Source: an uncultured Bacilli bacterium | GTDB taxonomy: Bacteria > Bacillota_I > Bacilli_A > RF39 > UBA660 | Length of the DNA stretch: 64,000 nt | Direction: 5' to 3' | Assembly: GCA_934163035.1 (NCBI GenBank) | Contig: CAKPJX010000005.1 | Span: forward strand, 1,465-65,464 | Shown here: in pieces, positions 12,198-54,525 of the stretch | Numbering within the stretch: the first letter of the stretch is position 1 | Layout: each line of letters starts with the position of its first letter | Translations under genes and position numbers: made by a program | The notes under the pieces: generated by a model | The model's database searches: none | Seen by the model: only the letters and a program-made list of their open reading frames with translations | Told to the model about the DNA's origin: nothing

Positions 12198-12239
12198 GCT
12201 ATAATCAAAATAGTAGAGAAGAATAATGGAGGGTAAAAC

Positions 12240-25742: not shown

Positions 25743-25743
25743 T

Positions 25744-26802: not shown

Positions 26803-26826
26803 ACAAGTTAAATCTTGTTTTTTTTC
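26801..26826 (+). terminator. Rho-independent terminator inside the island
   Basis: AAACAAG / CTTGTTT hairpin overlapping the stop, followed by a T run. Confidence 0.55.
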
Positions 26827-26896
26827 TATAATAATATTCCAATTTATTTTAAAATGCGTTATACTTAAAAAGAATAGAATAATAGGTGGTGAGATA

Positions 26897-28450: not shown

Positions 28451-28461
28451 GGAGAATTGAT

Positions 28462-30228
28462 ATGGATAATAATAAGTTAAAAAGAAAAATTAAATTACTA
28501 ATCACCTTAGCTATAGTAGCAGTATTTGTCTGGTTTGTTATCTTAGGACCAAAACTTAGTTTTAGATCAGATGAAAAAATGATGGAAGAAGCAGCTAAGA
28601 GATATTATGAAATAAATTCTGATAAACTTCCAACTGGTACAAGAATAAAAACTTTAACATTACAAGATTTATATAAAGGTGGTTTCCTTGAGAAAGACAT
28701 TTATCTACCATACAGTAAAGAGCCTTGTTCATTAACAGAAAGCTGGGTAAAAACAAGACAAGAAAATGGTAGTTATAAATATTATGTTTATCTACAATGC
28801 GGAGCACTAAAGTCAAATGTTGATCATACAGGACCAGTAATTATATTAAATGGTGAAGATGAGATAACAATTAATAAAGATGATAAATATGAAGAATTAG
28901 GTGTAAAGAAAGTTACTGACAATCAAGATGGAACAATTGATGTAAATAAAGTAACTATAGATTCATCAAAAGTCAATACTAATAAAAATGGTACTTATGA
29001 AGTTACTTACACAATATCAGATAGTTTTAATAATAAAACAGTAAAAACAAGAAAAGTAAACGTTATTGAAACAATATCTAATGTTGTAGATAAAAATACT
29101 AAAGGCGGAATTTATCAAGGTGAAGTTGAAAATAATTATATAATGCTATCAGGAATAAAATATAGAATTATTGGACGTGATGCAAATAGTAATATAAAAA
29201 TAGTAACTGATAGAGATATATCAAATGTTAACTATAATGGTATAGATAAATGGTTAGATTACTTTTATGATAATATGCCTAGTGAAGCAAAGAAATATAT
29301 AGTAAAGAGTAACTATTGCAATGACACAGTAAAAAAAGCAAAAGCAGATACTTATAAATCATGTGAAAGTACTAAAAACAAAAATGTATATATTTTATCA
29401 CTAAAAGAGATTAATGAAAGTACAAATGAGGATGGTTATAGTTACTTATATCCAGCAACAATAAGCTGGCTATCCAATCCATCTGGTGATAAGACAGCAC
29501 TTACAACAAGAAATTGGTTCAATGGTACTACTAGTAAATTCTATGAGTTTGATAAAAAATATAATTTTGGTGTTAGACCAGTTGTTACTATAAAAGGTGA
29601 TTCCTTAATTAAAGGTGGAAATGGTAGTGAAGATAATCCATATACCTTCAAAGAAACAAAAACAGGTAAAGCAGATGAATTATTAAATACTAGACATTCA
29701 GGAGAATATATATCATACTCAAATACAACATTTAGAATAGTTGAAATTGCTAGCGATAGTACTATTAAAGTTGTATCAACAGATGCAATTTTAGAAAATA
29801 TACAAAGTAATGGTACTAGTATCTATAATCCTAAACAAAAAAATAATATAGGATATATTATTAATCAACAAATAAACAGTAAAATAAATACTAAATATTT
29901 TGTAAATAAAGAAATAGAAGTACCAGTGTATAAAAATATATCTAGTTATAAAAAAGAAGAGAAAACTAATAAATATAAAGTAAAAGTTGCAGCTCCAAAC
30001 ATGTATGATATGTTTTCAGCAATGGATACAGGTCATGGATATTGGTTACTTAATTCTTCTCAAAATAAAGCTGTAAAAAATATTGTTTCAGATATAGGTG
30101 TTATCTATTACAGCGAAATGGAGCAAGATATTTCAAGTGGAGCAAGAATTGTAGGTTACTTAAATGCCAAATGTAAAATTGTTACAGGTAGTGGAACAGA
30201 AAATGATCCATATAGAATAACGAAATAG
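28462..30228 (+). CDS. Membrane-anchored extracellular protein: ComGC-like head, Ig-like domain, C-terminal domain ending GSGTENDPYRITK. Paralog of 52220-53437.
   Basis: N-terminal TM LLITLAIVAVFVWFVILG. LPTGTRIKTLTLQDLYKGGFLEKD...C...C resembles pilin-type head domains. DHTGPVIILNGEDEITI...YEVTYTISD is Ig-like. Confidence 0.6.
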   Translation: MDNNKLKRKIKLLITLAIVAVFVWFVILGPKLSFRSDEKMMEEAAKRYYEINSDKLPTGTRIKTLTLQDLYKGGFLEKDIYLPYSKEPCSLTESWVKTRQENGSYKYYVYLQCGALKSNVDHTGPVIILNGEDEITINKDDKYEELGVKKVTDNQDGTIDVNKVTIDSSKVNTNKNGTYEVTYTISDSFNNKTVKTRKVNVIETISNVVDKNTKGGIYQGEVENNYIMLSGIKYRIIGRDANSNIKIVTDRDISNVNYNGIDKWLDYFYDNMPSEAKKYIVKSNYCNDTVKKAKADTYKSCESTKNKNVYILSLKEINESTNEDGYSYLYPATISWLSNPSGDKTALTTRNWFNGTTSKFYEFDKKYNFGVRPVVTIKGDSLIKGGNGSEDNPYTFKETKTGKADELLNTRHSGEYISYSNTTFRIVEIASDSTIKVVSTDAILENIQSNGTSIYNPKQKNNIGYIINQQINSKINTKYFVNKEIEVPVYKNISSYKKEEKTNKYKVKVAAPNMYDMFSAMDTGHGYWLLNSSQNKAVKNIVSDIGVIYYSEMEQDISSGARIVGYLNAKCKIVTGSGTENDPYRITK

Positions 30229-30236: not shown

Positions 30237-31043
30237 ATGAAGAAAGTAAATAAGAGGAAAGGCAATAGATTAATATTAGTAATAATATTATTAAGCATTG
30301 CATTACTGGCTCTTATCTTTCTTCTTGTAAGGGGGATAAAAAATCTAATGCCCATTTACAAGAGTGAAGAAAGAACAGAAAATATCAAAAATTATAAAGT
30401 TACAGATGTTGATGCCGAAGTAGCAGCCTGGTTAAGAGTACAAGGAACAAATATTGACTATCCAGTAATTGATAATAATACTACTGTTGGAGTTAGCAGA
30501 ATAAAGCCAGATTTTACTTGGACACAAGGAGATATTAGTCCGCTACCAAATAAGTTATTCATATTAGGACATAATATAAAAAATGTATCTTCTAATCCTC
30601 TTATTACAGCAAAAGATCATACAAGATTTGAACAATTATTATCGTTCGTTTACTATGATTTCATAAAAGAAAATAAATATATTCAATATACAATAGATGG
30701 AACAGACTACTTATATAAAATATTCTCAGTTGCTTTTGTAGATGATTCTACACTAGACTATGAAAGTACCAATTATAGTAAAGAAGAAATGAAGAAATAC
30801 ATAAATCAATCAAAAAAAGATAGTTTCTTTGATTTTGATATAGATGTTAATGAAAATGATAAAATAATAAGCTTAATCACATGTACTAGATTCTTTGGAG
30901 CAACAAGAAAGTACGATTTTAAAATAGATGCTAGAATGGTAAGAAAAAAAGAAAGAGCCACTAACTATAGTGTTAAAAAGAACAAAAACTATAGTAAGAT
31001 AGAAAAAATAATGAGAGGTGAAAATGATGAACAAGAAGCATAA
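30237..31043 (+). CDS. srtB: Class B sortase-like transpeptidase (second copy)
   Basis: N-terminal TM, VAAWLRVQGTNIDYPVIDNN, FILGHNIKN (His), LITCTRF (Cys), IDARMVRK (Arg). Confidence 0.75.
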   Translation: MKKVNKRKGNRLILVIILLSIALLALIFLLVRGIKNLMPIYKSEERTENIKNYKVTDVDAEVAAWLRVQGTNIDYPVIDNNTTVGVSRIKPDFTWTQGDISPLPNKLFILGHNIKNVSSNPLITAKDHTRFEQLLSFVYYDFIKENKYIQYTIDGTDYLYKIFSVAFVDDSTLDYESTNYSKEEMKKYINQSKKDSFFDFDIDVNENDKIISLITCTRFFGATRKYDFKIDARMVRKKERATNYSVKKNKNYSKIEKIMRGENDEQEA

Positions 31044-33834
31044 GTTAAAAAGAATAAAATGGGGTGCACTTATAACTGTTAGTTGTTTAATTGGTGTTAT
31101 TCTTCTAAATACGAGTGCCAAAAGTTTAAGTAACTCAAAAGCAAAAGTAAAGAAACTGACTGAAACAAAAGCATCATGTAAAGTATATGAGAATTCTGAT
31201 TTTAATTCAAAAATCACAATATCTAAGCCAGAAAATGAAAGAAAAGTAAAAGTAGATGTTTCCATCAAGAAAAATATTGATGCCAATTTTTGGATATTCA
31301 TATCTGAAGGAGAAGATATGGGTGGACAAATTACCTTTAAAACAGAGGGCGAATTTAAAGGAAAAGATGGCTATCATGGAGATTATGACATCGAATTTCC
31401 TATAGTTGAATCCCACGTGGTAATAGTATATAAAGATGGTATAGCAGGTGCATGTGGAGAAACAGACAAAACAACAGCTAAGAATATTGCTACCGATTAT
31501 ATTAAAAATAAAAAATTTTCTGACAGTATGAAAACTACTATTAGTAATCAAGCTATTATCGCAAAAGGTGCATATCAAATAGTTGAAATGTCAGATGATG
31601 AACCAATTGAAGAGGATGATAGTGGTAACACTGAGGAAGAGGATAAAATAGCAAAAGAAATAGAAGGTATGACTTCTGAAAACGGTTCAATAGCAGGAAA
31701 TAGTGGAGGGGCAAGATTAGCCGATGATCCTAAAAACTTACCAGACGGCGATTTATTTTGCAGTTTGAATACTCCATATAAAGAAGGAATAACTAAAGGA
31801 GATGCCTATTATACAAATAATAAGTCATATTACCATAGTGAAACAACGGAAAAGAACTATTGTAAAAAAACCTGTGAAGAAACAATAACTATAAAATATG
31901 GGCCACCTGTCGCAACTAAGGCTGGAATGTGTTTTGAGTATAAAGTAAAAGTTGAAAGCAAGGTTTCTTGTAAGACTAAATGGTTAGGTGATGATGCTGG
32001 TCTTAAACCTAGAAAGAAAAAACTTTGTACTATTTATCCATCTTGTAACGGCAGTTCTACCTATGGTGATCAGGCTGGTCCTGATACTGATTTTGATAGC
32101 TGTGTTAATAAATGTGATAATGGCAAATATAGTCAGAAGTGTATTAATAAGTGTTACAAAGAAGTATATGAAAATGTAGACAATAAAAAAATATCTTATG
32201 ATAATAGCACAAATGATAATACAAGTGGCAGTCTATTAGCGACTAGAACAGCACTTTCAGATTTAGGTATAGATTTAAGTACCAAATTCTGCCAATCAGG
32301 TGCAAATGATCCAACTTATTATAAAAGCAACTATGATCAGTTAATGACAGCAATGAGAGATAAAAATAATGGTTGTGAATATAAAGAGGCAAAAGATGAA
32401 ACTATTTATTGGTCATGTTCAAGTGCTCACAGCTCAACAAATAATAGTAAGTATTGGCAAGCCTTAGGAAGATACTACTTCTTAACTGACAATAAAGCTA
32501 AGCAAACTCTACAATCAATTTCTACTAGCTGTAAAGGAGAACCACGTGGTACATACTATAGATATTACATTGATGCTGATGGCTTTAAACGTGCACTATT
32601 TAACAATGGCACCCATTGTACACAAGCGTGTTCATGGAAAAAATCAAGCAAGTCGCCTAGTGACTGTGTAGTTAGTAAAAGTAAAAGAGACAAAGAGTAT
32701 AAAGAAGCTTTGGAAACATATAAAAATTTGAAAGCAGCATGTAAGGCAGAAGCTTCATGTTCAACTACAGTAGCAAAATTTACTATAAGTGCAACAAATA
32801 AAGTGGCTAAAAATTATAAAGATGGAAAAGTTAGTGAAACAGGTGATATAACCTCCGCTTTTAATGCTAATGCACAAGGAAAAAGTATAATACATATTAC
32901 TAACGGTAATCCAATAATTGATAGCGGTGGTTGTTATGGATCATCAAGCGGAGGTTATGACTATATGACAGAATGGGCGTTCCCAGGAAGTTGGCGAAAT
33001 AACAAAAACGGTACGATATCGCAAACTAAGCCAACCGATACTAAGGGTTGGTCAAAAAGAGAAAAATATTATTGTACTTCACTTGATTCTGTAGGAGTAA
33101 ACTCTAATTGGTGGAATTGGGCTCAGTATACAAAACTAAAAGACAAGACTAATTATGAAAATTCAAGTATCAAATATAATGGTTCATCAGACAGTATTAA
33201 TTATAATATTACTGCGGAAACAAATAATTTTGGACACTTTGGATGGAATGTCACAATGAAATGCTTTTATGCAACCCCATCTGATGAAACTACAACTCCA
33301 CCATCAGAGTGTGAAGGAGAAGACGGATGTGGCACAAAAGATGAAACACCTAAGTTTGAATATGAGGCAAGAAGTGTTGATACAAAGGAAATGTTCCCAG
33401 AAGAGAGTAGAGGTAGTGGCGACGAGCAAATAATAGGATTTAACTGGACAGAAAAAGCCAATGAAAATCTTGAAGTTGATACTAGCAAAGAAGTAACAAT
33501 TGATGGAGAAAAGAAGACCCCTATTTCATATGAGATAAAGCCAGAAGCACTAAAGGAAAATATTAAAAAGCAAGCTGAGGACGGTAAAACATACAGTGAT
33601 GATAATCTAGAGTATTATGTTCAATTGAATAGAAAAGCCTTAAAAGAATTAAAGGGAATGACAATAGGAAAATTTAATGGAACATTTGAACCATATGCTG
33701 TTGGAAAAGAAGGTGTAAAACTATATACTATTCAGCGATACAAAACTAATTTGATAGACAATTATGGTGGAACTAGAAGAAGAACCAAATTATGTAATAA
33801 TTGGGATAATGATAGTTGTAGAAAATATAGCTAA
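31024..33834 (+). CDS. Large secreted Cys-rich protein, function unknown
   Basis: Signal peptide ...WGALITVSCLIGVILLNTSAKS. About 30 Cys, often as CxxxC/CxxxxxC pairs. No sorting signal. The start may be GTG 31018 or ATG 31024. Confidence 0.65.
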   Translation: MMNKKHKLKRIKWGALITVSCLIGVILLNTSAKSLSNSKAKVKKLTETKASCKVYENSDFNSKITISKPENERKVKVDVSIKKNIDANFWIFISEGEDMGGQITFKTEGEFKGKDGYHGDYDIEFPIVESHVVIVYKDGIAGACGETDKTTAKNIATDYIKNKKFSDSMKTTISNQAIIAKGAYQIVEMSDDEPIEEDDSGNTEEEDKIAKEIEGMTSENGSIAGNSGGARLADDPKNLPDGDLFCSLNTPYKEGITKGDAYYTNNKSYYHSETTEKNYCKKTCEETITIKYGPPVATKAGMCFEYKVKVESKVSCKTKWLGDDAGLKPRKKKLCTIYPSCNGSSTYGDQAGPDTDFDSCVNKCDNGKYSQKCINKCYKEVYENVDNKKISYDNSTNDNTSGSLLATRTALSDLGIDLSTKFCQSGANDPTYYKSNYDQLMTAMRDKNNGCEYKEAKDETIYWSCSSAHSSTNNSKYWQALGRYYFLTDNKAKQTLQSISTSCKGEPRGTYYRYYIDADGFKRALFNNGTHCTQACSWKKSSKSPSDCVVSKSKRDKEYKEALETYKNLKAACKAEASCSTTVAKFTISATNKVAKNYKDGKVSETGDITSAFNANAQGKSIIHITNGNPIIDSGGCYGSSSGGYDYMTEWAFPGSWRNNKNGTISQTKPTDTKGWSKREKYYCTSLDSVGVNSNWWNWAQYTKLKDKTNYENSSIKYNGSSDSINYNITAETNNFGHFGWNVTMKCFYATPSDETTTPPSECEGEDGCGTKDETPKFEYEARSVDTKEMFPEESRGSGDEQIIGFNWTEKANENLEVDTSKEVTIDGEKKTPISYEIKPEALKENIKKQAEDGKTYSDDNLEYYVQLNRKALKELKGMTIGKFNGTFEPYAVGKEGVKLYTIQRYKTNLIDNYGGTRRRTKLCNNWDNDSCRKYS

Positions 33835-33847: not shown

Positions 33848-34285
33848 ATGAATAAAGGTATATTAACAGTAGGAATAATTATTATGGCTATCACCGGGCT
33901 TGTAATGTTTAATATCATTACAAGCTGGTCACGTGGTGATGAATTAGATTATTATTTAGTTAAAGAAACAGCAGAAGCAGCCATGGAAGATGCTGTTGAC
34001 ACAACATTTTATAGGGATTCAGGACAAATTAGAATGGATTCAGAAAAGTTTGTAGAAAGCTTCCTTATACGTTTTGCTAAAGGTGTAGATAATACAAGAA
34101 ATTATGATATTAGATTTTATGATTTGAATGAGGTTCCACCTAAAGTTAGTGTAAAGGTTGACTCTGTAAACTCCTTAAGATATGACACGAATGAAACAGT
34201 ACAAATAAGTACAACCTATGATGGCATTATTGAGTCAACTAATAAACATGACCAATATGTAATCAATAGTAATAAGGAATTTTGA
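33848..34285 (+). CDS. Small protein with a prepilin-like N-terminus (MNKG + hydrophobic helix), candidate minor pilin or TadE/F-like
   Basis: MNKGILTVGIIIMAITGLVMFNII. Lies immediately upstream of the cpaB-like gene. RBS AAGGAGG. Confidence 0.4.
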   Translation: MNKGILTVGIIIMAITGLVMFNIITSWSRGDELDYYLVKETAEAAMEDAVDTTFYRDSGQIRMDSEKFVESFLIRFAKGVDNTRNYDIRFYDLNEVPPKVSVKVDSVNSLRYDTNETVQISTTYDGIIESTNKHDQYVINSNKEF

Positions 34286-34316
34286 TAATAGTAATTAATG
34301 AAAGTGAGGAATTAAA

Positions 34317-35123
34317 ATGGGGAATTTAGCAATGGGCATAAGAAAATTCTTTCAAAATAAGAATACTGTAACAGTAGTTGGTGTCGTAGTGGCTATTCTT
34401 GTATTATATATTGGCTATAATATAAGAGTAAAAAGAGCCATTAACCCAGTTACGGTTCCATATGCCAAGGAAGACATTAAGGGTGGTTCACAAATAACAT
34501 CCGATGCAATTGGAACAGTTGAGGTTCCACCTTCAATGTTAAAAGGAGATGTTCTTCTAAATCAAGGTGACATCATTGATAAATATGTAAGACCGGATGG
34601 TCTTATACCAGCTGGTAGTTTATTCTACAAGAAAGTTGTAGTTCCTGAAGAACAACTTCCAGCCAATATAATCTTGAAATATCCAGATGGCTATGTTTTA
34701 TATAATATGGCAGTTGATACTAGCACAACATATGGTAACTCAATATATCCAGAAAACTATATTGATATATATTTAAAAGCTGTTAACAGATTATCAGAGG
34801 GAGAGGCAGTAACACCAGATGCTGATAAGATTATGTTAGGAAAATTAGTTGAAAATGTAAAAGTATTAGCAGTAAAAGATGCTAGTGGACAACCAGTTTT
34901 TGCCAATCTTGATGAGCAAAGAACACCAGCAATGATAATCTTTGCAGTACCACAGGATTATTATATATTACTAAAGAAAGCTGAATATTTAAGAAGTTAT
35001 GATTCTACTTTAATACCAGTACCAACAAATGAGAGTACTAAAGAAGAGCAAGGTAAAATAACAATTTCAAGTGAAGCTTTAAAAGATTGGATTAATAAGG
35101 TTACAGTTTGGACAGATCAATAG
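34317..35123 (+). CDS. cpaB: Flp pilus assembly protein CpaB/RcpC-like (SAF domain)
   Basis: N-terminal TM. VTVPYAKEDIKGGSQITSDAIGTVEVPPSML is SAF-like. Also NMAVDTSTTYGNSIYPENYIDIYL and NVKVLAV...AMIIFAVPQDYYILLKKAE, which match the CpaB pattern. Confidence 0.6.
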   Translation: MGNLAMGIRKFFQNKNTVTVVGVVVAILVLYIGYNIRVKRAINPVTVPYAKEDIKGGSQITSDAIGTVEVPPSMLKGDVLLNQGDIIDKYVRPDGLIPAGSLFYKKVVVPEEQLPANIILKYPDGYVLYNMAVDTSTTYGNSIYPENYIDIYLKAVNRLSEGEAVTPDADKIMLGKLVENVKVLAVKDASGQPVFANLDEQRTPAMIIFAVPQDYYILLKKAEYLRSYDSTLIPVPTNESTKEEQGKITISSEALKDWINKVTVWTDQ

Positions 35124-35159
35124 AATTAAGAATAAAAGAATAATAGGGATGTGTGATAG

Positions 35160-36698
35160 ATGAATGAGAATATTTTTGACAAATTAGATTTTGGACCATT
35201 AAGAACACTATTAGATGATGATGACATCACAGATATTTCCTTCGATAATGGAGGACAAGTCTGGATTCGTTCACTATCACAAGGATCTATGAGAGTTGAG
35301 GTTCAGGGCTTAACCACTGAGTTCATTGAAAAATTAGCATTTCAATGTTCAAATGTTATGGGTACAACATTTAATAATGCTAAGCCTTTTCTAGATGCTG
35401 AATCATCAGAGTTAAGACTTAACTTTGTTCACTCTTCAATAGCAACTAATGGTATAGCCATGGTTATTCGTAAAACGCCAGCAAAAATAAGGCTAGAAAA
35501 AGATAAACTTTTAAAAGAAGAGTATTTTACACAAGATATTCATGACATTCTTATTAAATGTGTTGAAGGACATTGTAACATCATAGTAGCAGGAGAAACC
35601 GGTTCTGGTAAAACTGAGTTTGTAAAATATCTTGCTAGTCATACAAAAACAGAAGAAAAAATTATTACCATTGAGGATACATTGGAGTTGCACTTAGATA
35701 AAATATTTCCACAGCGAGATATTGTTGCTATGAAAACTAATAATGTAGCTAGCTATACAGACGTACTAGTAACTTGTATGAGACAGAATCCAAAATGGAT
35801 TCTACTATCAGAGGTTCGTAGTGCAGAAGCCGTAACAGCTGTTCGTAACTCTATATCTTCTGGACATAATATATTATCAACTATTCATGCTGACAAAGCA
35901 TCAGCTATTCCTTACCGTTTATATAGTTTGATGGAAACTGACTTAGACGTTAATCAGTTTCTTAATACAATATATAGATATGTTCAAATAGGTGTTCACA
36001 TAAGGGCATATTATAGTAAAAAATACCAAAAATTCCATCGTGAAGTTGATGAAGTTGTTGAGTTCTACGTAGATGAAAATAATAAACCACAAAGTAGAAT
36101 ATTATATCAAAAATTATTTGGAAAAGATCCAATACTAAGAAAACCAAGTGCACATCTTATTGAGTACTTAGAAAATCAAAATATTGATATTATGGCAATT
36201 ACATCAAAAATGAAAGAGGACGTTGAGGAGGCTGCAGATGAAGAAGTACAGCAAGAAGTTGCTCAAGTTACAACACAGATATCACAACCACAACAGCCAG
36301 CACCTATTCCTAATATGGGTAACACCACAAATGTAAATCAGCCACAAATAGCACCACTTAATAATACTCCGGTTATCCAACCTCTTTCTCCAACAATGGA
36401 TAATATTATTAATAATACCCCTGTTAATAATATAGCAGTCCCATTAAATCAAGCAATGAGTATTCCACAGGCACAAGTGATACCAAATGCCAATAATATT
36501 CAAATTCAAAAGCAAATACCATCTAATGCCGTAGTAGTTCCATCACCAGTAGAAAATGTTACTCAACAAATTCCTATTACTAACAACCAAGTTATTCCTT
36601 CATCAGGTGTAATACCATTACCAAGTCTTTCAACACAAGAAATACCGGAAAGAACTATTACTCAACAGGTTCCATTAAATGCAGGGCAAACAGGGTAG
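35160..36698 (+). CDS. tadA: TadA/CpaF-type secretion ATPase (T2SS-E/VirB11 superfamily) with a Q/P/N-rich C-terminal extension
   Basis: Walker A GETGSGKTE, ITIEDTLEL, Walker B ILLSEVR, His box STIHA, then about 155 low-complexity residues. Confidence 0.85.
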   Translation: MNENIFDKLDFGPLRTLLDDDDITDISFDNGGQVWIRSLSQGSMRVEVQGLTTEFIEKLAFQCSNVMGTTFNNAKPFLDAESSELRLNFVHSSIATNGIAMVIRKTPAKIRLEKDKLLKEEYFTQDIHDILIKCVEGHCNIIVAGETGSGKTEFVKYLASHTKTEEKIITIEDTLELHLDKIFPQRDIVAMKTNNVASYTDVLVTCMRQNPKWILLSEVRSAEAVTAVRNSISSGHNILSTIHADKASAIPYRLYSLMETDLDVNQFLNTIYRYVQIGVHIRAYYSKKYQKFHREVDEVVEFYVDENNKPQSRILYQKLFGKDPILRKPSAHLIEYLENQNIDIMAITSKMKEDVEEAADEEVQQEVAQVTTQISQPQQPAPIPNMGNTTNVNQPQIAPLNNTPVIQPLSPTMDNIINNTPVNNIAVPLNQAMSIPQAQVIPNANNIQIQKQIPSNAVVVPSPVENVTQQIPITNNQVIPSSGVIPLPSLSTQEIPERTITQQVPLNAGQTG

Positions 36699-36711
36699 AA
36701 AGGAGTAAAAC

Positions 36712-37614
36712 ATGTATATAGAAGAGTTATTTATAATTGCAGTCATCTTTATATTTATAGCAATGTATAGAAATTATAAAGGTCAAAATGTGGGAAAATT
36801 CATAACTACTCAAGTACAAGTCTTATATAATAAATTTGCTCCATATTCATTTAAGTTGGTCAGAGAAAAAACAAAAGAATTAGGACAAGAATATACATTA
36901 AGACAATATACAGTTCAAGTCGTTGGTATGTCGACTTTTGCGGGAGTAGTAAGTTATTTATATTTTTATAATTTAATAATATGTGCAATATATATTATAG
37001 CTGTAATTATGTTTATACCATATTTATCATTTTTAAGATGTAAAAGAATTTATAGTGAGTTCATATTTGAACAAGTCCAAGTATATACATCCAATGTTAT
37101 TATGGAATTTGCGACAACCCAATCATTCGTTAAATCTCTTGAAGGAGTAAGGAACTCTGGTGTATTAGAAGATCCAGTTAAAAGAGATGTGGATCACATG
37201 ATAGAATTAGCTTATCAAAATGGAAGTATTGATGAATCATTAGCCTATATGAGTAACCTTTATCCATATTATATTGTAAAGAATATGCATCAATTATTCT
37301 TACAAATTACTAAGGAAGGTGCCAGAAACTCTGCCGATTCACTAGAAAACATGCAACTAGACATCGATATGCTTGTTGAAAATGTATACCGAGATAGAAT
37401 AGAAAGAGCAACTTTCCATAAATCATTTATTCAATTTGGTCTGATGCTGTATTTGATGGTTATGTTAGTTCAATATTTATTAGGTAGAGAAACATATTTA
37501 ATCTTATTAGATAGATGGTATATACAAGTACTACTCCATGGTGTTTTAATAATTAATTCATATTTCCTTCTAAAAGGAGAAAAATATTATAATGAGAATG
37601 TAGGTGCGGAATAA
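36712..37614 (+). CDS. tadB: TadB-like platform protein (T2SS-F family)
   Basis: N-terminal TMs, a cytoplasmic helical domain, C-terminal TMs. Follows tadA. RBS AAGGAG. Confidence 0.55.
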   Translation: MYIEELFIIAVIFIFIAMYRNYKGQNVGKFITTQVQVLYNKFAPYSFKLVREKTKELGQEYTLRQYTVQVVGMSTFAGVVSYLYFYNLIICAIYIIAVIMFIPYLSFLRCKRIYSEFIFEQVQVYTSNVIMEFATTQSFVKSLEGVRNSGVLEDPVKRDVDHMIELAYQNGSIDESLAYMSNLYPYYIVKNMHQLFLQITKEGARNSADSLENMQLDIDMLVENVYRDRIERATFHKSFIQFGLMLYLMVMLVQYLLGRETYLILLDRWYIQVLLHGVLIINSYFLLKGEKYYNENVGAE

Positions 37615-38423
37615 TGGAAGTATTAATTGTTGGAGCTCTTTTCATGTGGATACTAATCTATAACAATACAATAGACAAAAGAAAATTTATGATTGATAAT
37701 CAAAAATATTTTGAAGCATTTAAAGAGGATGATTATGATTTTCTTGTTTATGCAAGGTATGGTGAGGATGTAGATGTAAATATACTATATTCAAGAAGAG
37801 TATTATACTCATTAATAGCCTTTATAATGGTATTAATGTTTACTCTAACCAGTGGAGATACTGCTAGTTTGTTTGATTCTCAGTTTTTTATAAACTTAGT
37901 TTTAGCTCTTGTAGTAGGAGTACTTGTATTTAAGTCATCATATATGCAATTAAAGAGATACTATAAAGTACATTTACATGAAATTGACGTTATGCTGCCA
38001 TATTTTTTAAAGAGTTTGGAAATCTTAATACAGCATTATACCGTTCCAGTTGCAATAGGTAAATCAATAGATGATGCTCCAGATATATTCAAACCAGGTT
38101 TAAGACACCTTGTAGAAAGAATAAATTCAGGTGATTCAACAATTGATCCATATATGGAGTTTGCTAATACTTACCCAGTTAGAGATTCAATGAGAATGAT
38201 GAGATTGCTTTATCGTTTGGGAATTGGTTCACAAGAGGGAAAACAAGAACGTTTGATGATGTTTTCAAGAACTGTTTCAAATTTACAAAATAAGGCACGT
38301 GAAACAAAATATAAAGAAAGACTTAATCACATGGAAAATCAGACTATGGTTATGCTAGTTGTAACTGGTGTTGGTGTTATGCTAGTTATTTTAATTTCCA
38401 TGATGATGATGTTTAGTATGTAA
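37614..38423 (+). CDS. tadC: TadC-like platform protein (T2SS-F family)
   Basis: Same topology as the previous ORF. Start overlaps the upstream stop (TAATG). Confidence 0.55.
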   Translation: MEVLIVGALFMWILIYNNTIDKRKFMIDNQKYFEAFKEDDYDFLVYARYGEDVDVNILYSRRVLYSLIAFIMVLMFTLTSGDTASLFDSQFFINLVLALVVGVLVFKSSYMQLKRYYKVHLHEIDVMLPYFLKSLEILIQHYTVPVAIGKSIDDAPDIFKPGLRHLVERINSGDSTIDPYMEFANTYPVRDSMRMMRLLYRLGIGSQEGKQERLMMFSRTVSNLQNKARETKYKERLNHMENQTMVMLVVTGVGVMLVILISMMMMFSM

Positions 38424-38437
38424 AATGAAATAAAATA

Positions 38438-38466
38438 TTGTTATTTGCTAAATAATTTGTTATACT
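38438..38466 (+). promoter_or_regulatory. Internal sigma-A type promoter candidate in front of the small pilin-like ORF
   Basis: TTGTTA, 17 nt spacer, TATACT with TGT just upstream. Confidence 0.5.
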
Positions 38467-38499
38467 AATGGTATAAAGATATGAAAGGAGATGTATTAA

Positions 38500-38667
38500 A
38501 TGAAAGCAGCAACTGGTGAATTAAACCTAACTGTTATTACATTAATTGCTATAGCAGCAGTAATTGGTTTCTTCTGGATTTTATGGCCAGGTATTAAAGA
38601 TAGTTTAAATAATCAGTGGGATAACATTTCTAGTAGCCATGAATTAATTATTCTAGATAGAAAATAG
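38500..38667 (+). CDS. 55-aa pilin-like ORF (Flp/Tad-type major pilin candidate), absent from the supplied ORF track
   Basis: AAAGGAG 9 nt before the ATG. Translation is MKAATGELNLTVITLIAIAAVIGFFWILWPGIKDSLNNQWDNISSSHELIILDRK: a short charged leader ending in Gly, followed by a hydrophobic helix of about 20 aa. Confidence 0.55.
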   Translation: MKAATGELNLTVITLIAIAAVIGFFWILWPGIKDSLNNQWDNISSSHELIILDRK

Positions 38668-38685
38668 TTAAAGAGGTGATTTTAT

Positions 38686-39153
38686 ATGCGTGATGCTCTA
38701 GGCGGATTAGTTAACATAGCAATAATTGTCGTATTTTTAGTTATAGTTAGTGGATATTTAGCATTTAATGTTAATTATACTAAGGCATTTCGTGTTAAAA
38801 ATAAAATAATCTCCACAATAGAAAATATGGAGGGGCTTCAAGATTTCAATGATCCTACAAAATCACAAGTAAAAGCATTTGAAAATTCAATCGGCTATGA
38901 TGTAAGTATACCAAAAAGTGCTAGTCTGCCAACTGTTCCTATAGGGGAAAGCAAATGGCAAGAACACAAAGAGTATGGCTGTTATATAAGGGAAGTAACT
39001 GATGAAACAGGTGCAAGCGATGCAACCCAAAAAAAGTATTATGAAGTAATAACTTTTGTTACAGTTGATATTCCAATAATAAAAAAAATTATGCCCCAAT
39101 TTCCATTTTTCCAAGTAAAGGGAGCAACTAAATCAATTAAGGTATATAATTAA
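38686..39153 (+). CDS. TadE/pseudopilin-like protein (tentative)
   Basis: MRDALGGLVNIAIIVVFLVIVSGYLAF N-terminus, meaning a leader ending in Gly plus a hydrophobic helix. Lies next to the pilin-like ORF. Confidence 0.4.
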   Translation: MRDALGGLVNIAIIVVFLVIVSGYLAFNVNYTKAFRVKNKIISTIENMEGLQDFNDPTKSQVKAFENSIGYDVSIPKSASLPTVPIGESKWQEHKEYGCYIREVTDETGASDATQKKYYEVITFVTVDIPIIKKIMPQFPFFQVKGATKSIKVYN

Positions 39154-39191
39154 AAGGGGACAGGTTAATATTTCAAGATGAGGGTGATATA

Positions 39192-40211
39192 GTGAATGTA
39201 ATAGTTGGTAATAAACAACAAAACTTACTATCAAACTTAGACATTGACATTATAAAAAGTATCACCGGCACTTATTCTGCGTCTGAATTAGTAGAGATAT
39301 TTAAAAACTTTTTCTTTAATAAAATGGTTTTAGATGTTACTGCTTTGAAGGACTATAGTAATATTAACAGCTATAAAACTTTAGCAAGTGGTATGGACCC
39401 GGATAAAATTATATGCTTTGTGCCAGAAAAAAGTCCGCTATGTACAGCTGGATTTTTCTCTGCTTTAGTGTCAACTGGAATTTATAACTTTACAACTAAT
39501 ATTGACGGCATTAAATATTTAACAAGGCATTCTAATACATTGCAAGATGTAAAACAATTTCAAAATGTTCAACCAATGATAAATAACATAAAGGAATCAA
39601 ATGAATTAAAACCAGATTTAGTAAAGGTATCAACTTCATCAAACAATACAAACAGCAGAATAATAGGAATAAAAAGCATTACTGGGGGAGCTGGAAGTAC
39701 TACATTTACATATATGTTAAAAAAGGAACTAGTAAAAAAACTTGATCCAAATGTCATTGCTGTAGAAATAGATAAGTCCGATTTCAAAGCATTTGGAGAT
39801 AGGAATATGTACTCAATTACTGATAATCAATTAAAGTCATTTTTGAGTAAAAATAGTTCATCAAAGATTATCTTAGTTGACTTAAACAATAGTAAAAATT
39901 CCTATCTATGTAATGATATAATATACTTGTTAGAGCCAAGTATAGTAAAAATAAATAAACTATTAAGATATGGACCTACAATACTGCAAAAATTAAGAAA
40001 TAAAAAAGTTGTTTTAAATAAAAGCTTGCTTACTTCACAGGATGTACTTGATTTTGAGTATGAATCAGGATTAAAAGTATTTTATAATATGCCACCATTA
40101 AATGAGAGAAAGCAAAATGATATTATTAGTGAATTTTTATCAAAAATGGGGTTAATTGGTTCAAAAGCAAAATCAAATTCAGGTCGGGTGTTTGGATTAT
40201 TTAGAAGGTAA
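39192..40211 (+). CDS. TadZ/CpaE-like ParA/MinD-family ATPase with an N-terminal receiver-like domain (tentative)
   Basis: GTG start after GAGGGTGA. IIGIKSITGGAGSTTFTYML is a deviant Walker A, and KIILVDLNNS is Walker B-like. Confidence 0.5.
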   Translation: MNVIVGNKQQNLLSNLDIDIIKSITGTYSASELVEIFKNFFFNKMVLDVTALKDYSNINSYKTLASGMDPDKIICFVPEKSPLCTAGFFSALVSTGIYNFTTNIDGIKYLTRHSNTLQDVKQFQNVQPMINNIKESNELKPDLVKVSTSSNNTNSRIIGIKSITGGAGSTTFTYMLKKELVKKLDPNVIAVEIDKSDFKAFGDRNMYSITDNQLKSFLSKNSSSKIILVDLNNSKNSYLCNDIIYLLEPSIVKINKLLRYGPTILQKLRNKKVVLNKSLLTSQDVLDFEYESGLKVFYNMPPLNERKQNDIISEFLSKMGLIGSKAKSNSGRVFGLFRR

Positions 40212-40215: not shown

Positions 40216-40244
40216 TTGACAAAACTAAAGTTATAATGTATTAT
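40216..40244 (+). promoter_or_regulatory. Sigma-A type promoter candidate at the start of the T4SS block
   Basis: TTGACA, 17 nt spacer, TATTAT with an extended TG. Confidence 0.45.
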
Positions 40245-40268: not shown

Positions 40269-40619
40269 ATGTTAGATTTATTTCAAATTGGAGTAGTAGG
40301 AACAATAAGTGATAGCTGTGGTGGATTAGGTCCAGTTGTTAAAATATTAAAACTAGGTGTTTTAAGAATTGTATGTATTGTTATTCCAATCGCTCTAATC
40401 GGTTTTGCAATATTTGATTTAGGAAAAGCCATTATTGCAAGTGATGATAAAGAAGTAAAAGCTGCTCAATCAAGACTTATAAAGAGAATTATATATGGTA
40501 TAGTTATTTTCTTGGTACCATTTATAATCACATTAGTAATGAATCTTGTAGCACAAGGTGCAGATCAATCAGAGACTAATACTCAAAATTGGGCAACATG
40601 TTGGAATAGTATTCAATAA
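40269..40619 (+). CDS. VirB2/TrbC-like two-TM pilin-like protein (tentative)
   Basis: Start moved to the ATG after GAAGGAGAGG. Two TM helices are separated by the charged loop ASDDKEVKAAQSRLIKR. Paralogous to 40690-41346. Confidence 0.45.
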   Translation: MLDLFQIGVVGTISDSCGGLGPVVKILKLGVLRIVCIVIPIALIGFAIFDLGKAIIASDDKEVKAAQSRLIKRIIYGIVIFLVPFIITLVMNLVAQGADQSETNTQNWATCWNSIQ

Positions 40620-40620
40620 T

Positions 40621-40646
40621 AGCAAACGTTTGCTATTTTTTTTTTA
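40621..40646 (+). terminator. Strong rho-independent terminator directly after the first VirB2-like gene
   Basis: Palindrome AGCAAACGTTTGCT followed by ATTTTTTTTTT. Confidence 0.65.
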
Positions 40647-40689
40647 CTCTGTTATAATTAATATGATATAATGTTTTTGGAGTGATTTT

Positions 40690-41346
40690 ATGAAATGGTC
40701 AAAACTATTACCAACAATATTTTTATTAGGCTTAATACTAGCTCTACCACACAATGTAAAGGCAGAAGAGGCCAAAAAGTGTCTATATGATAATAGTTCA
40801 ACAATTACAATACATACTGATAATACGGCAGAAGTTTCAGATGGAATTATAAGTTGGAATTGGTGGAAAAAGAAAAATGGTAACAAGCTTATTTGTCCAA
40901 AGTATATTATTATGTCAAATCCAGTAGCTGTAAGAGATAGTTTAGAAGAAGCACAAAAATATTCTACTCAAAATAAAGCTAATTATTACAAGCTAGTGAG
41001 TTCAGAAATTGTTACAAAGAGTGATAACAACACTACACAAAATAATTCCGAAGGAACATCAGAGTCATATTTAGGAAAAGTAGATGATGATGACTCAGTT
41101 GCATGGTTAATAAAAAAGGTTTTAAATTATGTAAGAATAGCTGGACCAGTATTAGTCTTAATTTTAACAAGTGTTGACTATTTAAGAGCATTAATTCAAA
41201 GCGATGACGAGACAATGGCTAAAATAAATAAAAAATTAGGAACCAGATTATTATTAGTAGTTTTACTATTTCTTATACCTACACTTGTAAATGTTGTACT
41301 ATCATTAGTTGGATATGATACAGCAAATACTGAGGCATTTAAATAA
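40690..41346 (+). CDS. Secreted or membrane protein with a VirB2/TrbC-like C-terminal two-TM module (paralog of 40269-40619)
   Basis: Signal peptide ...LGLILALPHNVKA. The C-terminal ALIQSDDETMAKINKKLGTRLLLVVLLFLIPTLVNVV aligns with AIIASDDKEVKAAQSRLIKRIIYGIVIFLVPFIITLV. Confidence 0.45.
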   Translation: MKWSKLLPTIFLLGLILALPHNVKAEEAKKCLYDNSSTITIHTDNTAEVSDGIISWNWWKKKNGNKLICPKYIIMSNPVAVRDSLEEAQKYSTQNKANYYKLVSSEIVTKSDNNTTQNNSEGTSESYLGKVDDDDSVAWLIKKVLNYVRIAGPVLVLILTSVDYLRALIQSDDETMAKINKKLGTRLLLVVLLFLIPTLVNVVLSLVGYDTANTEAFK

Positions 41347-41360: not shown

Positions 41361-43451
41361 ATGACTGAATATACTAGTGCTAACACAATTACCGATATGC
41401 TTAGAAGTATTCTAAGTACTATAATAGATAGGCCAGCATTTCTTATACTTAGTTTAATGTATGAGATTTTCTTTAATGTTGCCAATGCAGAGTTATTTAA
41501 CGATTCTACTATTAGAAGATTTTATTATAAAATCCAATTAATACTTGGCGTTTTTATGATATTTAAATTGTCTATTTCAGTATTAGAAGCTATCGTAAAT
41601 CCCGAAAAGCTAACAGCAAAAAAGACAGGTACAATGTCAATAATTGCTAGAGTATTTATATCATTAGCACTATTGGCTGCATTAACCCCAATAAATATTC
41701 CAAATCCTAAGAATGAATATGAAAGAAAATTAAAAAATAACGGTTTAATCTTTGGTATTTTATATTCACTACAATATCGAATATTGCAACAGAATACGCT
41801 GGGAAGATTAGTATTAGGAGATGAATTTGTTAGCAGTGAAAGTAGCGGTCAAAACAAAAAAATAAGGGAAACAGTTTTGTCAACCTCAGATGCTGCTAAT
41901 TCCTTCTCATCAACTATCTTAAAAACGTTTATGAGAATAAACTTAGTACCAAAAAGTGAAAGACAAACAAATAATGATGGTAAGCCAGATGAACTTAACA
42001 AAAACAATTGGGTATGTAAGGACATAGACAGCACACTTATAGATACATATAGAGACGTAAATGCAGATCCACAACAATTACTTATGTTCATCAATTATGA
42101 TTGCGATACATCATCAAGTGATGGTGTAGTATCGCACCTTAAATCTAAATTAAATAAATTAGCTAGCAAGGCTGATTATGCTTTTACATATAACCCATTA
42201 GGTGGAATTGCTGCATATGTATTTGCTTTCTTATTATTAACATTTACTGTTGATGTGGCAATTAGAGCCATAAAAATTGCAATATTAAGATTAATAGCTC
42301 CGATACCAGTTATTAGTTATATGAGCCCTAACCCAAAGGATAATGGTGCTATGGGAACTTGGGCAAAATCATTAGCGACAACATATCTATCACTATTTAC
42401 TAGACTACTTATAATTTACTTAGTAATATATTTAATTCAAGACATGATTCAAAATGGTATGGCAGCAAAAACTACTGGTGGCTTGATAGGCGGCATTTCA
42501 TTTATATTGATTTGCTTTGGCTTATTCTTATTTGCCAGACAAGCTCCAAAGTTTATTCAGGATGCACTTGGAATAAAAGCCGGTAGTGGAAGCGTTGGTC
42601 TTGCACTTGCTGCATCAGGACTTGGAACAATAAGGGGTGGAGGAAAACCAAGAGATGCTTGGAGCAATATGATGGAAGCATCAAGAGCTGCACAAAGTGG
42701 TGGAAAAGATCCTGTTTCAGGAAATTCGTATAGAGCTAACTTGGGTTCATATAAAGATATGAGAGATGCAACGGTAAAGAAAGAAAAGGATAAATATGAT
42801 AAGAATTTAGCTCAAAATTATTATGAAAGAGCATTAGATATTGATGATCAGGATGGGGCAGGCTATAAAAGTCGTCGATGGTGGCAGTCAAAAGACTCTG
42901 GAGAAGCTAGAGCAAAAACTCAAACCTTTGACGCAAATAAACAACGATATAAGGCGAATTGGCAAACACATGAACGTGCAACTGGTAGAGGTGTAACAAC
43001 AAGGGCTGGATCGGAATTCCATACTAGAAGAGATCCGTATCCAACACCGACCCCATCTGGACAACAAGGAACACCACCATCTGGACCACCAAGTAGAAAT
43101 AGAGGGGATGCTGCCGATAAAAGTATTGGTATAGAAGTAAGACCAGTATATAAACATAAACCAATAAAAGTAGGTGGTAAAACTATAACTATAGGAGAAC
43201 CAGAGATGCGTCAAAACGGTGGTTCTGGATATGCTGTTGACGGATCAATACCAAGTGGACCAATACCAGGCGGACCAACACCAAGTGGACCAACACCAGC
43301 CGGACCAACACCAGCCGGACCAACACCAGGTGGACCAACACCAGCCGGACCAACACCAGCTGGACCAACACCAGGTGGACCAACACCAGATGGACCAACA
43401 CCAGGCGGACCAACACCAGGTGGACCAACACCAGGTGGACCAACAGCGTAA
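41361..43451 (+). CDS. VirB6/TrbL-like polytopic T4SS channel protein with a Pro-rich repeat tail
   Basis: At least 6 hydrophobic helices. Sits between the VirB2-like and VirB3/VirB4-like genes. The C-terminal 65 aa are GPTPx pentapeptide repeats. Confidence 0.6.
43248..43448 (+). repeat. In-frame 15-nt tandem repeat, about 13 copies (GGACCAACACCAGNN), encoding (GPTPx)n
   Basis: Directly visible: [66 protein letters not shown]. Confidence 0.9.
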
Positions 43452-43469: not shown

Positions 43470-43778
43470 GTGAATTATTTAATTCCAGCAAATACAAAAA
43501 GAGGACAATTGATATTGGGACTGTTTAGACCCTTCGATTTGATTTTGGTTGGTAGTGGAATAGCTGTAACAATATTGTTACTTGCTTTATTACCACTAAG
43601 TTCAACATTTATGACAGTATTAGCACTATTACCAGGGGGGGTATGTGCTATTCTTGTTACTCCATTACCGTATTACCACAACGTATTAAATGGCATAATT
43701 GAAGTGTATTCATTTTTAACAAGTACCCAAAAATATAAATGGAAAGGTTGGTGTTATAGGGAATGGCTCAAAAAGTAG
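43470..43778 (+). CDS. PrgI-family / VirB3-like small membrane protein
   Basis: GTG start after AAGGAG. Has the [24 protein letters not shown] pattern, two TMs, and lies directly upstream of VirB4. Confidence 0.55.
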
Positions 43779-44317
43779 CAAGTACATACAAGTACACAGA
43801 AGATTGGCTTCCAGTCAAAACAATTCAAAATGGTATGATCCTTACAAAAAGTAATTATAAAGTAACAGGAGTAAAAATATCTCCTAAAAATATTTTTATT
43901 CTTGATCCAGACGTTCAAAACAATATATTAATAAGCTTAAAAAACTTTTATAATACTATTGATTTTGAATTTTGGCTAGTTGTTGCTGATAGACCAGTAG
44001 ACATATCTGTCTATATGTCAAATTTACAATTAAAATTCAATGAAGCAACATCACCAGCAATTAGAAAGCTGATTGCTCAAGACATTCAAAAAGGTGAAAA
44101 CTTTATCAATAATAACATTGTTGATACGGAATATTACTTCCTATTTAAAGATAAGAATGTGGATCTCCTACAAAAAAGAGTAAGAATGATGATCAATGGT
44201 TTAGCAAGCTGTGGTTTGAACGCGTCACAAACTAGCAATGAAGATTTGAGAGTTATTTTAGAAAATTTCTTAAATGGGGGAAATAGAACTGAATTTGGGA
44301 CGGTGATGCCAGTATGA
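43763..44317 (+). CDS. N-terminal domain of VirB4-type ATPase encoded as a separate ORF
   Basis: DWLPVKTIQNGMILTKSNYKVTGVKISPKNIFILD...ILISLKNFYNTI resembles the N-terminus of Gram-positive VirB4 (Tn916 Orf16/TcpF/PrgJ type). Its stop overlaps the next start (ATGA). Confidence 0.55.
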   Translation: MAQKVASTYKYTEDWLPVKTIQNGMILTKSNYKVTGVKISPKNIFILDPDVQNNILISLKNFYNTIDFEFWLVVADRPVDISVYMSNLQLKFNEATSPAIRKLIAQDIQKGENFINNNIVDTEYYFLFKDKNVDLLQKRVRMMINGLASCGLNASQTSNEDLRVILENFLNGGNRTEFGTVMPV

Positions 44318-49018: not shown

Positions 49019-49096
49019 AACAAAAAAGTAGTATTAGCCAATGCTTATATATAATACAAGGCTATATTGTGTGCACTAAACTTATAGGAGGTTATT

Positions 49097-52202: not shown

Positions 52203-52219
52203 AAGAGGGAGGAATTTAT

Positions 52220-54517: not shown

Positions 54518-54525
54518 GAGTATTT

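Follow-up and report, generated by a model that had tools for sequence, protein, structure and literature searches.

We analysed a 64,000-nucleotide (nt) window of DNA (contig CAKPJX010000005.1, positions 1,465-65,464) from an uncultured Bacilli bacterium, in which an earlier note had described a Tad/Flp-type pilus gene set at 33848-40211. Eight open reading frames (ORFs), all on the + strand, span this module, and the sequence bears out their reported coordinates, their tight packing (intergenic gaps of 13-76 nt) and the 1-nt overlap of the TadB-like and TadC-like ORFs (gaaTAATGgaa). In order, they encode a 145-aa DUF5411 protein (33848-34285; Pfam DUF5411, 2.6e-43), a 268-aa CpaB/RcpC-like protein with a transmembrane (TM) helix and SAF and RcpC beta-clip domains (34317-35123), a 512-aa secretion ATPase of the T2SSE superfamily (35160-36698; Pfam T2SSE, 4e-28), a 300-aa polytopic TadB-like platform protein identified by profile matches (36712-37614), a 269-aa polytopic protein in the TadC position with weaker profile matches (37614-38423), a 55-aa pilin candidate proposed from its size, position and N-terminal helix only (38500-38667), a 155-aa protein whose N-terminal helix makes it a putative minor pilin of the TadE kind (38686-39153), and a 339-aa two-domain protein with a GTG start and a TadZ-like predicted fold (39192-40211). 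For locus comparisons we used a set of 80 species-level genomes, with gene order scored wherever the contig reaches. The module genes are collinear in these genomes, with median identities of 44-78%, and are therefore real; the possibility of chance ORFs was rejected. Overall, the data support the proposal that a type-IV-filament (Tad-related) gene set with a CpaB/RcpC-like gene and a non-canonical order is present in a monoderm. The module is not a canonical Tad/Flp system; it belongs to a poorly characterised family associated with type IV secretion systems (T4SSs) of Firmicutes.

Neither platform protein has a direct Pfam or NCBIfam match, and the same holds for the 55- and 155-aa proteins. 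A phmmer search among 1.84 billion representatives returned 233 relatives of the TadB-like protein, and a diverse family alignment was required for its hhalign comparisons; with shallow alignments (at least 64% identical), TadB versus TadC gave no signal. The TadB-like family aligned with a Parageobacillus plasmid protein that passes Pfam T2SSF (99.2%, E 1.6e-19), with p38 of pLS20 (97.4%) and with canonical TadB (90.2%, E 1.5e-6), and Pfam T2SSF was matched by only 1 of 20 distant relatives. The protein has a T2SS-F-type cytoplasmic helical domain, and for its AlphaFold2 model (pLDDT 81.8) the top Foldseek match in the PDB was the cytoplasmic domain of EpsF/GspF (prob 0.90, but E 0.97). The 269-aa protein has the same TM layout, and hhalign links it at 97.8% to the second membrane protein of Gram-positive plasmid modules; on these comparisons it is probably a divergent TadB-like paralogue, TadC. 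Of the expectation that both polytopic proteins would match T2SS-F, the part concerning the 300-aa protein thus stood, through profiles only, and for the 269-aa protein there is only a weak link. PDB profile searches with the TadB, TadC, CpaB and TadZ family alignments gave nothing meaningful.

The CpaB-like protein has a TM helix at residues 18-36, a SAF domain at 46-92 and an RcpC domain at 124-214. For this individual sequence all matches fall below cut-off (Pfam RcpC 2.7e-4, SAF 1.1e-3, TIGR03177 4e-7); among 14 relatives, RcpC was matched by all 14 and SAF by 11, and many relatives carry a precomputed PF16976 assignment. Furthermore, hhalign aligned the protein at 99.6% with the Parageobacillus plasmid CpaB, which itself passes the Pfam cut-off, and a 73%-identical relative is named 'RcpC/CpaB family pilus assembly protein' by NCBI. 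With this architecture, and with RcpC found throughout its relatives, the identification as CpaB/RcpC holds. The accompanying surprise at finding CpaB in a monoderm was overstated, since CpaB/SAF genes adjoin TadZ-TadA on 364 Bacillaceae plasmids.

The 339-aa protein gave weak sequence matches only (AAA_31 0.035, BcsQ 1.5e-4), no PDB profile match, and no link to plasmid TadZ by hhalign. Its AlphaFold2 model (pLDDT 80.5) comprises an N-terminal alpha/beta receiver-like domain, a linker and a ParA/MinD-like domain. Foldseek matched this model to the ParA structure 3ea0 (2.7e-5), to MinD, BcsQ and FlhG, and, over both domains, to 3fkq, a two-domain protein of Eubacterium rectale (5.8e-4) that we take to be the published TadZ structure; structural TM-scores were low (0.3-0.46). 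Its predicted fold and domain layout, receiver-like plus ParA/MinD, make it a candidate TadZ.

The 55-, 155- and 145-aa proteins share a conserved N-terminal layout, a short charged leader ending in Gly followed by a hydrophobic helix of ~20 residues. In an alignment of 70 orthologues the 55-aa protein has an invariant N-terminus, MKAATG/ELNLTVIT..AI.A.I.FFW, with its TM helix at 10-28. The 155-aa protein begins with a conserved M(R/K)DAxGG followed by the hydrophobic helix (TM 4-22), and the 145-aa protein has one TM helix at 5-23 (MNKG/xLTVGII...). The latter shows a weak link to pLS20 gene 36 (tblastn 1e-3; hhalign 68.6%), and the Parageobacillus plasmid protein in the same position has a weak DUF5411 match; it may be a minor-pilin-like or anchor component. 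Profile comparisons of the 55- and 155-aa proteins with plasmid small proteins, DUF4320 and the pLS20 p40 and p41 groups gave no links.

All of the ATPase motifs that had been called unambiguous were located: Walker A (GETGSGKT, residues 145-152), the Asp box (169-174), Walker B (WILLSEVR, 213-220) and the His box (STIHA, 240-244). The ATPase core comprises residues 1 to ~340 and is followed by a hypervariable low-complexity tail. This tail (residues ~340-512, window ~36180-36698) is acidic or P/Q/N-rich and varies in length from ~30 to ~290 residues between species, the whole protein measuring 362-624 aa; CpaF and VirB11 have nothing resembling it. In comparisons with the PDB, the ATPase scored 74 bits against FlaI, 71 against CpaF, 67 against archaeal GspE and 56-58 against VirB11. 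Its best NCBIfam score was 122 bits against VirB11 TIGR02788 (cut-off 250); it scored 98.5 against TrbB (cut-off 304), and the models for the TadA-type conjugal ATPase and FlaI likewise stayed below cut-off. In a neighbour-joining tree (309 columns, 200 bootstraps) with reference CpaF, VirB11/TrwD/TrbB and GspE sequences from annotated plasmids, the protein fell in a clade with 98% bootstrap made only of Firmicute conjugation-associated ATPases, those of pLS20 (gene 37), pDSYZ, pXO2, pLM80, pBMB67 and a Parageobacillus plasmid. The CpaF clade (86%) and the VirB11 clade (70%) stand apart from this group, and the branching order of the three has 14% bootstrap. The ATPase had been predicted to group with TadA/CpaF rather than with VirB11; it is indeed set apart from VirB11, and from the VirB11/TrbB family by cut-offs and tree alike, and it sits in a third clade, not with CpaF.

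In annotated collections, every one of the closest homologues of the ATPase and of the CpaB-like protein lies on a Gram-positive plasmid; two plasmid types are compared here. On the Parageobacillus plasmid NZ_CP063416 the module sits between MobQ/VirD4 and TrbL/VirB4/lysozyme genes in the order SLH protein, large surface protein, DUF5411-like protein, CpaB (RcpC 8e-11), ParA-like protein, ATPase, T2SSF protein, TadC-like protein, 81-aa protein, DUF4320 protein and A24-like peptidase (22 bits, below cut-off); that of pBMB67 is similar. This type shares with our locus the DUF5411-like protein, CpaB (SAF+RcpC), T2SSE, TadB (T2SSF), TadC-like, small hydrophobic and ParA-like proteins, as well as the large surface protein upstream and the adjoining VirB6, VirB4 and hydrolase genes, and hhalign comparisons with it gave 99.4-99.6% for CpaB, 99.6-99.7% for the ATPase, 99.7% for TadB and 97.8% for TadC. 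It differs in its order, cpaB-tadZ-tadA-tadB-tadC-pilin-DUF4320-(A24), whereas here the TadZ-like gene comes last and its product is much diverged from plasmid TadZ, with an extra N-terminal domain. The DUF4320 and A24-like genes of the Parageobacillus plasmid are absent from this locus, and its MobQ relaxase has no counterpart found at the chromosomal site.

The second type, represented by pLS20 and also by pXO2/pAW63 and pLM80, contains the closest relatives of the ATPase (35-37% identity, hhalign E 8e-36, sister clade with 86% bootstrap). It is plasmid-borne with a relaxase and carries, within conjugation operons, a reduced module without CpaB and TadZ-like genes, in the order adhesin, small TM protein, ATPase, two polytopic proteins, ~120-aa and ~47-aa TM proteins, then the T4SS. 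In pLS20 (8311-12199), genes 38 and 39, which the literature lists as unknown, are homologues of TadB/TadC-type platform proteins (hhalign 97.4% for p38); weak links connect gene 36 with DUF5411 and the gene 40 group with DUF4320. The literature treats the pLS20-type genes as a VirB11 accompanied by functionally unassigned proteins and proposes no pilus (PMC8557374, PMC11730352). By these alignments, the 'VirB11' region of pLS20 resembles a Tad-like module in reduced form. The ATPase clade, TadB/TadC pair and T4SS neighbours of our own module place it among the Firmicute conjugation-associated Tad-like modules of the pLS20/pXO2/pBMB67 type.

The nature of the ATPase bears on a reading in which no filament is made: the enzyme would be a VirB11-type third ATPase energising the T4SS, and the polytopic, CpaB-like and small TM proteins would be parts of a translocon or wall channel. 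The module always accompanies a T4SS, the best NCBIfam score of the ATPase is to VirB11 (below cut-off, as given above), the pilin and pseudopilin assignments are unproven, there is no prepilin peptidase nearby, and the plasmid homologues have been annotated or discussed as VirB11 (PMC8557374, PMC9673590). Against this, the ATPase gene immediately precedes the TadB/TadC homologues, contrary to a partner-free VirB11, and together with CpaB and the TadZ-like protein this is a typical Tad combination. To our knowledge, VirB11 ATPases work without partners of the GspF/TadB type. In addition, the PDB scores slightly favour FlaI and CpaF over VirB11, the clade is separate from VirB11, and the Parageobacillus relative has an A24-like peptidase in its module. 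We therefore consider a filament-free energiser rather unlikely. Plain VirB11 identity was rejected, given the TadB/TadC, CpaB and TadZ-like partners.

Downstream of the module lies a T4SS of the pLS20 / Mycoplasma-ICE (integrative and conjugative element) kind, with families of the pLS20_p028, CD1115 and Mbov_0397 types. The adjacency of module and T4SS is kept in every one of the 80 loci that reach that far. We replaced a correlation of identity-to-window with GreA, which is too crude for vertical descent, by Mantel tests: TadB and VirB4-N distances co-vary (rho 0.66), and the values against the flanking GreA are modest (0.19-0.36) and positive, and not significant for the ATPase. With the unbroken adjacency, this covariation and the homologous modules in conjugation clusters of unrelated Bacillaceae plasmids, the suggestion that module and T4SS are linked beyond chance is upheld. 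A sigma-70-type promoter, TTGACA-17-TATTAT (40216-40244, + strand), precedes the T4SS genes and starts 5 nt past the last stop codon of the module (40211), just where a promoter-like element had been noted; RBS (ribosome-binding site) AAGGAGAGG follows. As a class, promoter-like matches are not enriched in the window (132 found versus 127 expected from shuffles). At least 80% of 67 related genomes retain the -35 box TTGACAAA and the RBS AAGGAGAGG of this site, which is therefore very probably a real promoter. The start codon of the first T4SS gene is then most likely the ATG at 40269 (giving 116 aa) and not the one at 40236.

The own promoter of the T4SS would suit a stand-alone Tad pilus for adhesion or colonisation, like those of Bifidobacterium and Eubacterium, that shares a neighbourhood and an origin with the T4SS and does not cooperate with it. 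Tad pili of gut Gram-positives serve colonisation, as does the Tad pilus of Bifidobacterium breve; the module is co-oriented and tightly packed with sortase and surface-protein genes rather than with those of the T4SS, and the locus is chromosomal and lineage-wide, like that of a housekeeping surface organelle. However, the nearest relatives of the ATPase, TadB, TadC and CpaB all lie in plasmid conjugation clusters, the Parageobacillus module is placed between VirD4 and VirB6/VirB4, and here the T4SS adjacency is unbroken and Tad and T4SS proteins co-vary. A free-standing adhesion pilus is thus unlikely.

The window itself is chromosomal, with genes for BipA, DnaE, LspA, MltG/YceG, a U32 peptidase, GreA, trigger factor and Lon, and has a G+C content of 26-33%. 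A ~28-kb block at 25098-53437, consisting of sortases and surface proteins, the Tad-like genes and the T4SS with VirD4, lies between greA and dedA/rmuC. Across the 80 genomes the order is HD – GreA – (sortase/358 aa) – 551 – 588 aa – SrtB – Cys-rich – DUF5411 – CpaB – ATPase – TadB – TadC – pilin – 155 aa – TadZ – 116 – 218 aa – VirB6 – 102 aa – VirB4N – VirB4, and in two further species, as in the window, the right side runs on with hydrolase – ~260 aa – VirD4 – ~410 aa – (rhodanese) – DedA – RmuC … trigger factor – Lon. On the left, greA adjoins the block in 55 of 80 loci; on the right, other species have the same neighbours, with housekeeping genes beyond that border. VirD4 homologues, ~77% identical, lie on contigs reaching 1.1 Mb. 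Relatives of the CpaB-like gene occur in at least 292 species-representative genomes, nearly all of them uncultured metagenome-assembled genomes labelled Bacilli, Tenericutes, Mollicutes or 'Mycoplasma sp. CAG:877', presumably of the GTDB order RF39, and human gut metagenomes contain identical proteins. Searches for near-identical DNA in plasmids or phages found none. This is a chromosomally fixed, lineage-wide locus, a point that the earlier note missed.

Pfam and NCBIfam detected no relaxase or integrase between greA (24560) and dedA/rmuC (53891-55605), and the window has no tRNA; a relaxase of a novel type, or one encoded elsewhere in the genome, could still exist. A recently integrated ICE was rejected, as both borders are conserved, no integrase or relaxase was found and the window lacks a tRNA; nor, as far as those searches reach, does the locus have the relaxase, the integrase, recombinase or replication genes and the variable presence or site of an ICE or conjugative plasmid. 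The ~28-kb block gives the appearance of a conjugation-type apparatus that has been domesticated, not of a mobile element. The absence of a recognised relaxase and integrase across this interval, together with a VirD4 that is nevertheless present and conserved, and the position of RmuC just downstream, would suit an apparatus for DNA uptake or exchange, in which the filament captures DNA or partner cells and the T4SS moves DNA into cells of the lineage or between them. Precedents are ComB, Ced/Ups and the Tad-linked competence of Micrococcus, where Flp pili drive transformation of M. luteus (PMC4322843). On the other hand, Pfam scans showed no DNA-binding or competence proteins (ComEA/ComEC) in the window, the possible relaxase of another kind or place counts against this reading, and the plasmid relatives clearly serve export-type conjugation. 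We regard DNA uptake as quite improbable.

Based on these results, we consider it probable that the module is a divergent Tad-related filament machine that makes or stabilises contact with a partner cell, or opens a path through the wall, for the T4SS. On the observed gene content, homologies, folds and linkage, which is conserved on the chromosome and on conjugative plasmids, we infer filament formation, pilin processing, a CpaB ring and cooperation with the T4SS as follows. The hexameric-type secretion ATPase would power a membrane platform of the TadB-like and TadC-like proteins. This platform would draw copies of the 55-aa pilin-like protein out of the membrane and assemble them into a short filament or pseudopilus, which the anchored 145- and 155-aa proteins may join. 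A CpaB/RcpC-like ring around the filament would guide it through the wall zone, not to a secretin. RcpC has been described as a TM-anchored dodecameric ring with a ~5-nm pore that may shield the filament from peptidoglycan, and the predicted conduit is drawn by analogy with that dodecamer (PMC12307814). The TadZ-like ParA/MinD protein, with its degenerate P-loop, may position or scaffold the machine. The whole would be a three-part, co-inherited apparatus of sortases and surface proteins, Tad-like module and T4SS (VirB4, VirB6, wall hydrolase, VirD4), not a free-standing adhesion pilus, and its filament would serve the T4SS as type IV pili serve R64-type conjugation.

Several observations weigh against such a filament machine. 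The ATPase lies outside the CpaF clade, the Foldseek match of the TadB-like model to GspF has an E of 0.97, and the TadC-like protein reaches by hhalign only 67.7% (E 5e-5) with the TadB family and 12% with canonical TadB. The P-loop of the TadZ-like protein is degenerate (ITGGAGSTT) and lacks lysines. The designation of the 55-aa protein as a 'Flp-type' pilin is not supported, since neither it nor 9 orthologues match Pfam Flp_Fap or another family and it lacks the G/XXXXEY motif, having Glu at +1 and no EY. The labels 'tadE-like' and 'pseudopilin-like' reflect only the N-terminal hydrophobic helices: family and profile searches linked neither the 155-aa nor the 145-aa protein to TadE/TadF or DUF4320, and the 145-aa protein is a DUF5411 protein. 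A class III signal is missing altogether from the small proteins of pLS20-type plasmids. No A24 peptidase occurs among the Pfam-scanned window ORFs of at least 100 aa, and tblastn with the Parageobacillus A24-like protein found none, whether in the window or up to 10 kb from the CpaB-like gene of each of the 80 loci. Finally, no filament has been reported for pLS20-type plasmids, and the conserved promoter of the T4SS block makes separate regulation possible.

Comparison with better-known systems shows where the module departs from them. In its parts list it matches the canonical Tad/Flp systems (Aggregatibacter tad, Caulobacter cpa, Pseudomonas rcp/tad, and those of Bifidobacterium and Eubacterium rectale): it shares with them an ATPase and CpaB/RcpC, and it has candidates for their two platform proteins of one T2SSF domain each, their TadZ-type ParA/MinD protein, their very small pilin and their larger minor pilins; there is no secretin, as expected for a monoderm. 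In contrast to them, it has an ATPase from outside the CpaF clade, a pilin without the Flp motif or a Pfam match, no TadV in the locus, a different gene order and an obligate linkage to a T4SS. The R64 thin pilus, the PAPI-1 pilus and Sulfolobus Ups with Ced are likewise type IV filaments that aid DNA transfer by joining cells (PMC12102498, PMC12857230), but they are T4b, T4a or archaeal pili of diderms or archaea, whereas the present module is Tad-related, belongs to a monoderm of the Bacillota and is known from genes alone. The chromosomal T4SSs of Patescibacteria, mostly without a relaxase, have been proposed to be co-opted for a non-conjugative role (PMC12102498, PMC12857230). Like them, our locus has a monoderm-type T4SS (VirB4, VirB6, hydrolase, VirD4, VirB2-like pilins) that is chromosomally fixed in a reduced-genome lineage; unlike them, it belongs to a different phylum, and no fusion of a Tad-like module with the T4SS locus has been reported for the type IV pilus genes of Patescibacteria.

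Accounts of Gram-positive conjugation describe it as proceeding without a pilus, with mating-pair formation largely unexplained (PMC11730352, PMC10221548). Neither Tad nor CpaB is mentioned in a T4SS review of 2025, and our literature search, which was incomplete, brought up no account of a Tad-like module, either for Gram-positive conjugation or for RF39; the chromosomally fixed version, with no relaxase found, appears to be undescribed in the literature searched. On our data, a Tad-related module for filament assembly is a feature of a large class of Firmicute T4SS loci, where it has in part been filed as 'VirB11 plus unknowns'. The module is never inherited apart from a conjugation-type secretion system, suggesting that a pilus-like part may after all belong to some Gram-positive "mating" machines. 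It is thus a testable candidate for a contact or wall-crossing device in tractable models (pLS20 and pBMB67-like plasmids) and a natural case of a CpaB/RcpC ring without a secretin, which bears on roles of RcpC beyond docking to RcpA. Its single chromosomal site, the failure to find a relaxase and the spread of CpaB-like relatives through the gut species genomes counted above hint that, in a group without cultured members, a conjugation machine has given rise to an organelle whose role is specific to the lineage. More speculatively, an order-level lineage of small-genome gut Bacilli might have domesticated a conjugation machine, a Tad-like filament and sortase-dependent surface proteins as a permanent chromosomal organelle for obligate cell-cell interaction, with the pLS20/pXO2 'VirB11' regions encoding a Gram-positive mating filament. 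We hold this extension only tentatively and on balance doubt it; if true, the organelle could serve, for example, to exchange DNA or nutrients with neighbouring cells or to support a life resembling that of an epibiont, parallel to the essential T4SS of Patescibacteria.

The part of the block upstream of the module, all on the + strand, encodes sortases and surface proteins. The gene for a 214-aa sortase-domain protein (25098-25742; Pfam Sortase, 2.9e-08), present in only some related loci, opens the tightly packed block that runs into the Tad-like genes. It is followed by genes for three secreted or surface proteins of 358, 551 and 588 aa (25726-30228), recognised from Pfam matches and their C-termini; the 551-aa protein has a DUF4352 domain and the 588-aa protein an Ig-like domain, and both genes occur in 69-72 of 80 loci. 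The last residues of the 358-aa protein (25726-26802) are IIPPNTGID. They resemble a sortase motif of the (S/P)PxTG type and stand at the very end of the chain, so that neither a hydrophobic anchor nor a charged tail follows; the same operon holds two sortase genes (25098 and 30237). The second of these encodes a class B-like sortase of 268 aa (30237-31043; Pfam Sortase, 2.5e-07; TIGR03064 SrtB 1.5e-18, below cut-off) found in 74 of 80 loci. Next comes a secreted Cys-rich protein of 938 aa with 30 Cys (31018-33834), which has no family match and evolves fast (median 30% identity across loci). The corresponding position is held by a thioester adhesin in pLS20 and pLM80 and by a large surface protein in pBMB67 and the Parageobacillus plasmid, which makes the 938-aa protein a candidate adhesin.

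The T4SS block, likewise on the + strand, begins with two small membrane proteins of 116 and 218 aa (40269-41346) with weak matches to pilin families: the first has two TM helices, is VirB2/pilin-like and weakly matches the NCBIfam Mbov_0395 pilin-like family (8e-4), and the C-terminus of the second weakly resembles T4SS_pilin (Pfam, 0.0067). A VirB6/TrbL-like channel protein of 696 aa (41361-43451; Pfam TrbL_4, 6e-07) is related below cut-off to the NCBIfam pLS20_p028 and Mbov_0396 families. It ends in tandem GPTP(A/G)GPTP repeats (~43190-43451), which cause a local rise in G+C (0.38) and long spurious ORFs on the opposite strand. A 102-aa protein with two TM helices is followed by a split VirB4-type ATPase (184 + 599 aa; 43470-46113), whose N-terminal part matches NCBIfam VirB4_plasma (Mbov_0397) at 5e-16 and whose ATPase part at 8e-104. 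The two VirB4 ORFs (43763-46113) overlap by 4 nt, and the split (TraC-like + AAA_10/DUF87) is kept in other species, so that VirB4 is not a pseudogene. The remaining genes encode a 960-aa cell-wall hydrolase (SpoIID + M23, by Pfam) and a 261-aa membrane-anchored protein recognised by its TM helix (46136-49882) and, at the right end of the locus, a 752-aa VirD4-type coupling protein and a 405-aa membrane-anchored extracellular protein (49944-53437). The coupling protein passes NCBIfam conju_CD1115 with 305.8 bits (cut-off 250) and matches Pfam T4SS-DNA_transf at 1.7e-56. The 405-aa protein (52220-53437) shares the C-terminal motif G(S/T)GTExDPYxIxK with the 588-aa protein (28462-30228), which is also membrane-anchored and extracellular, and weak tblastn matches to it (~25% identity) lie elsewhere in 13 related loci. 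Outside the block, a SpaA-fold surface protein with a classical LPXTG signal (LPTTG, TM helix and charged tail) is encoded at 56691-58382, ~3 kb downstream, among housekeeping genes, and two hybrid histidine kinase/response-receiver proteins of 749 and 776 aa (8053-10302 and 12240-14570) are encoded in the housekeeping region ~10-15 kb upstream.

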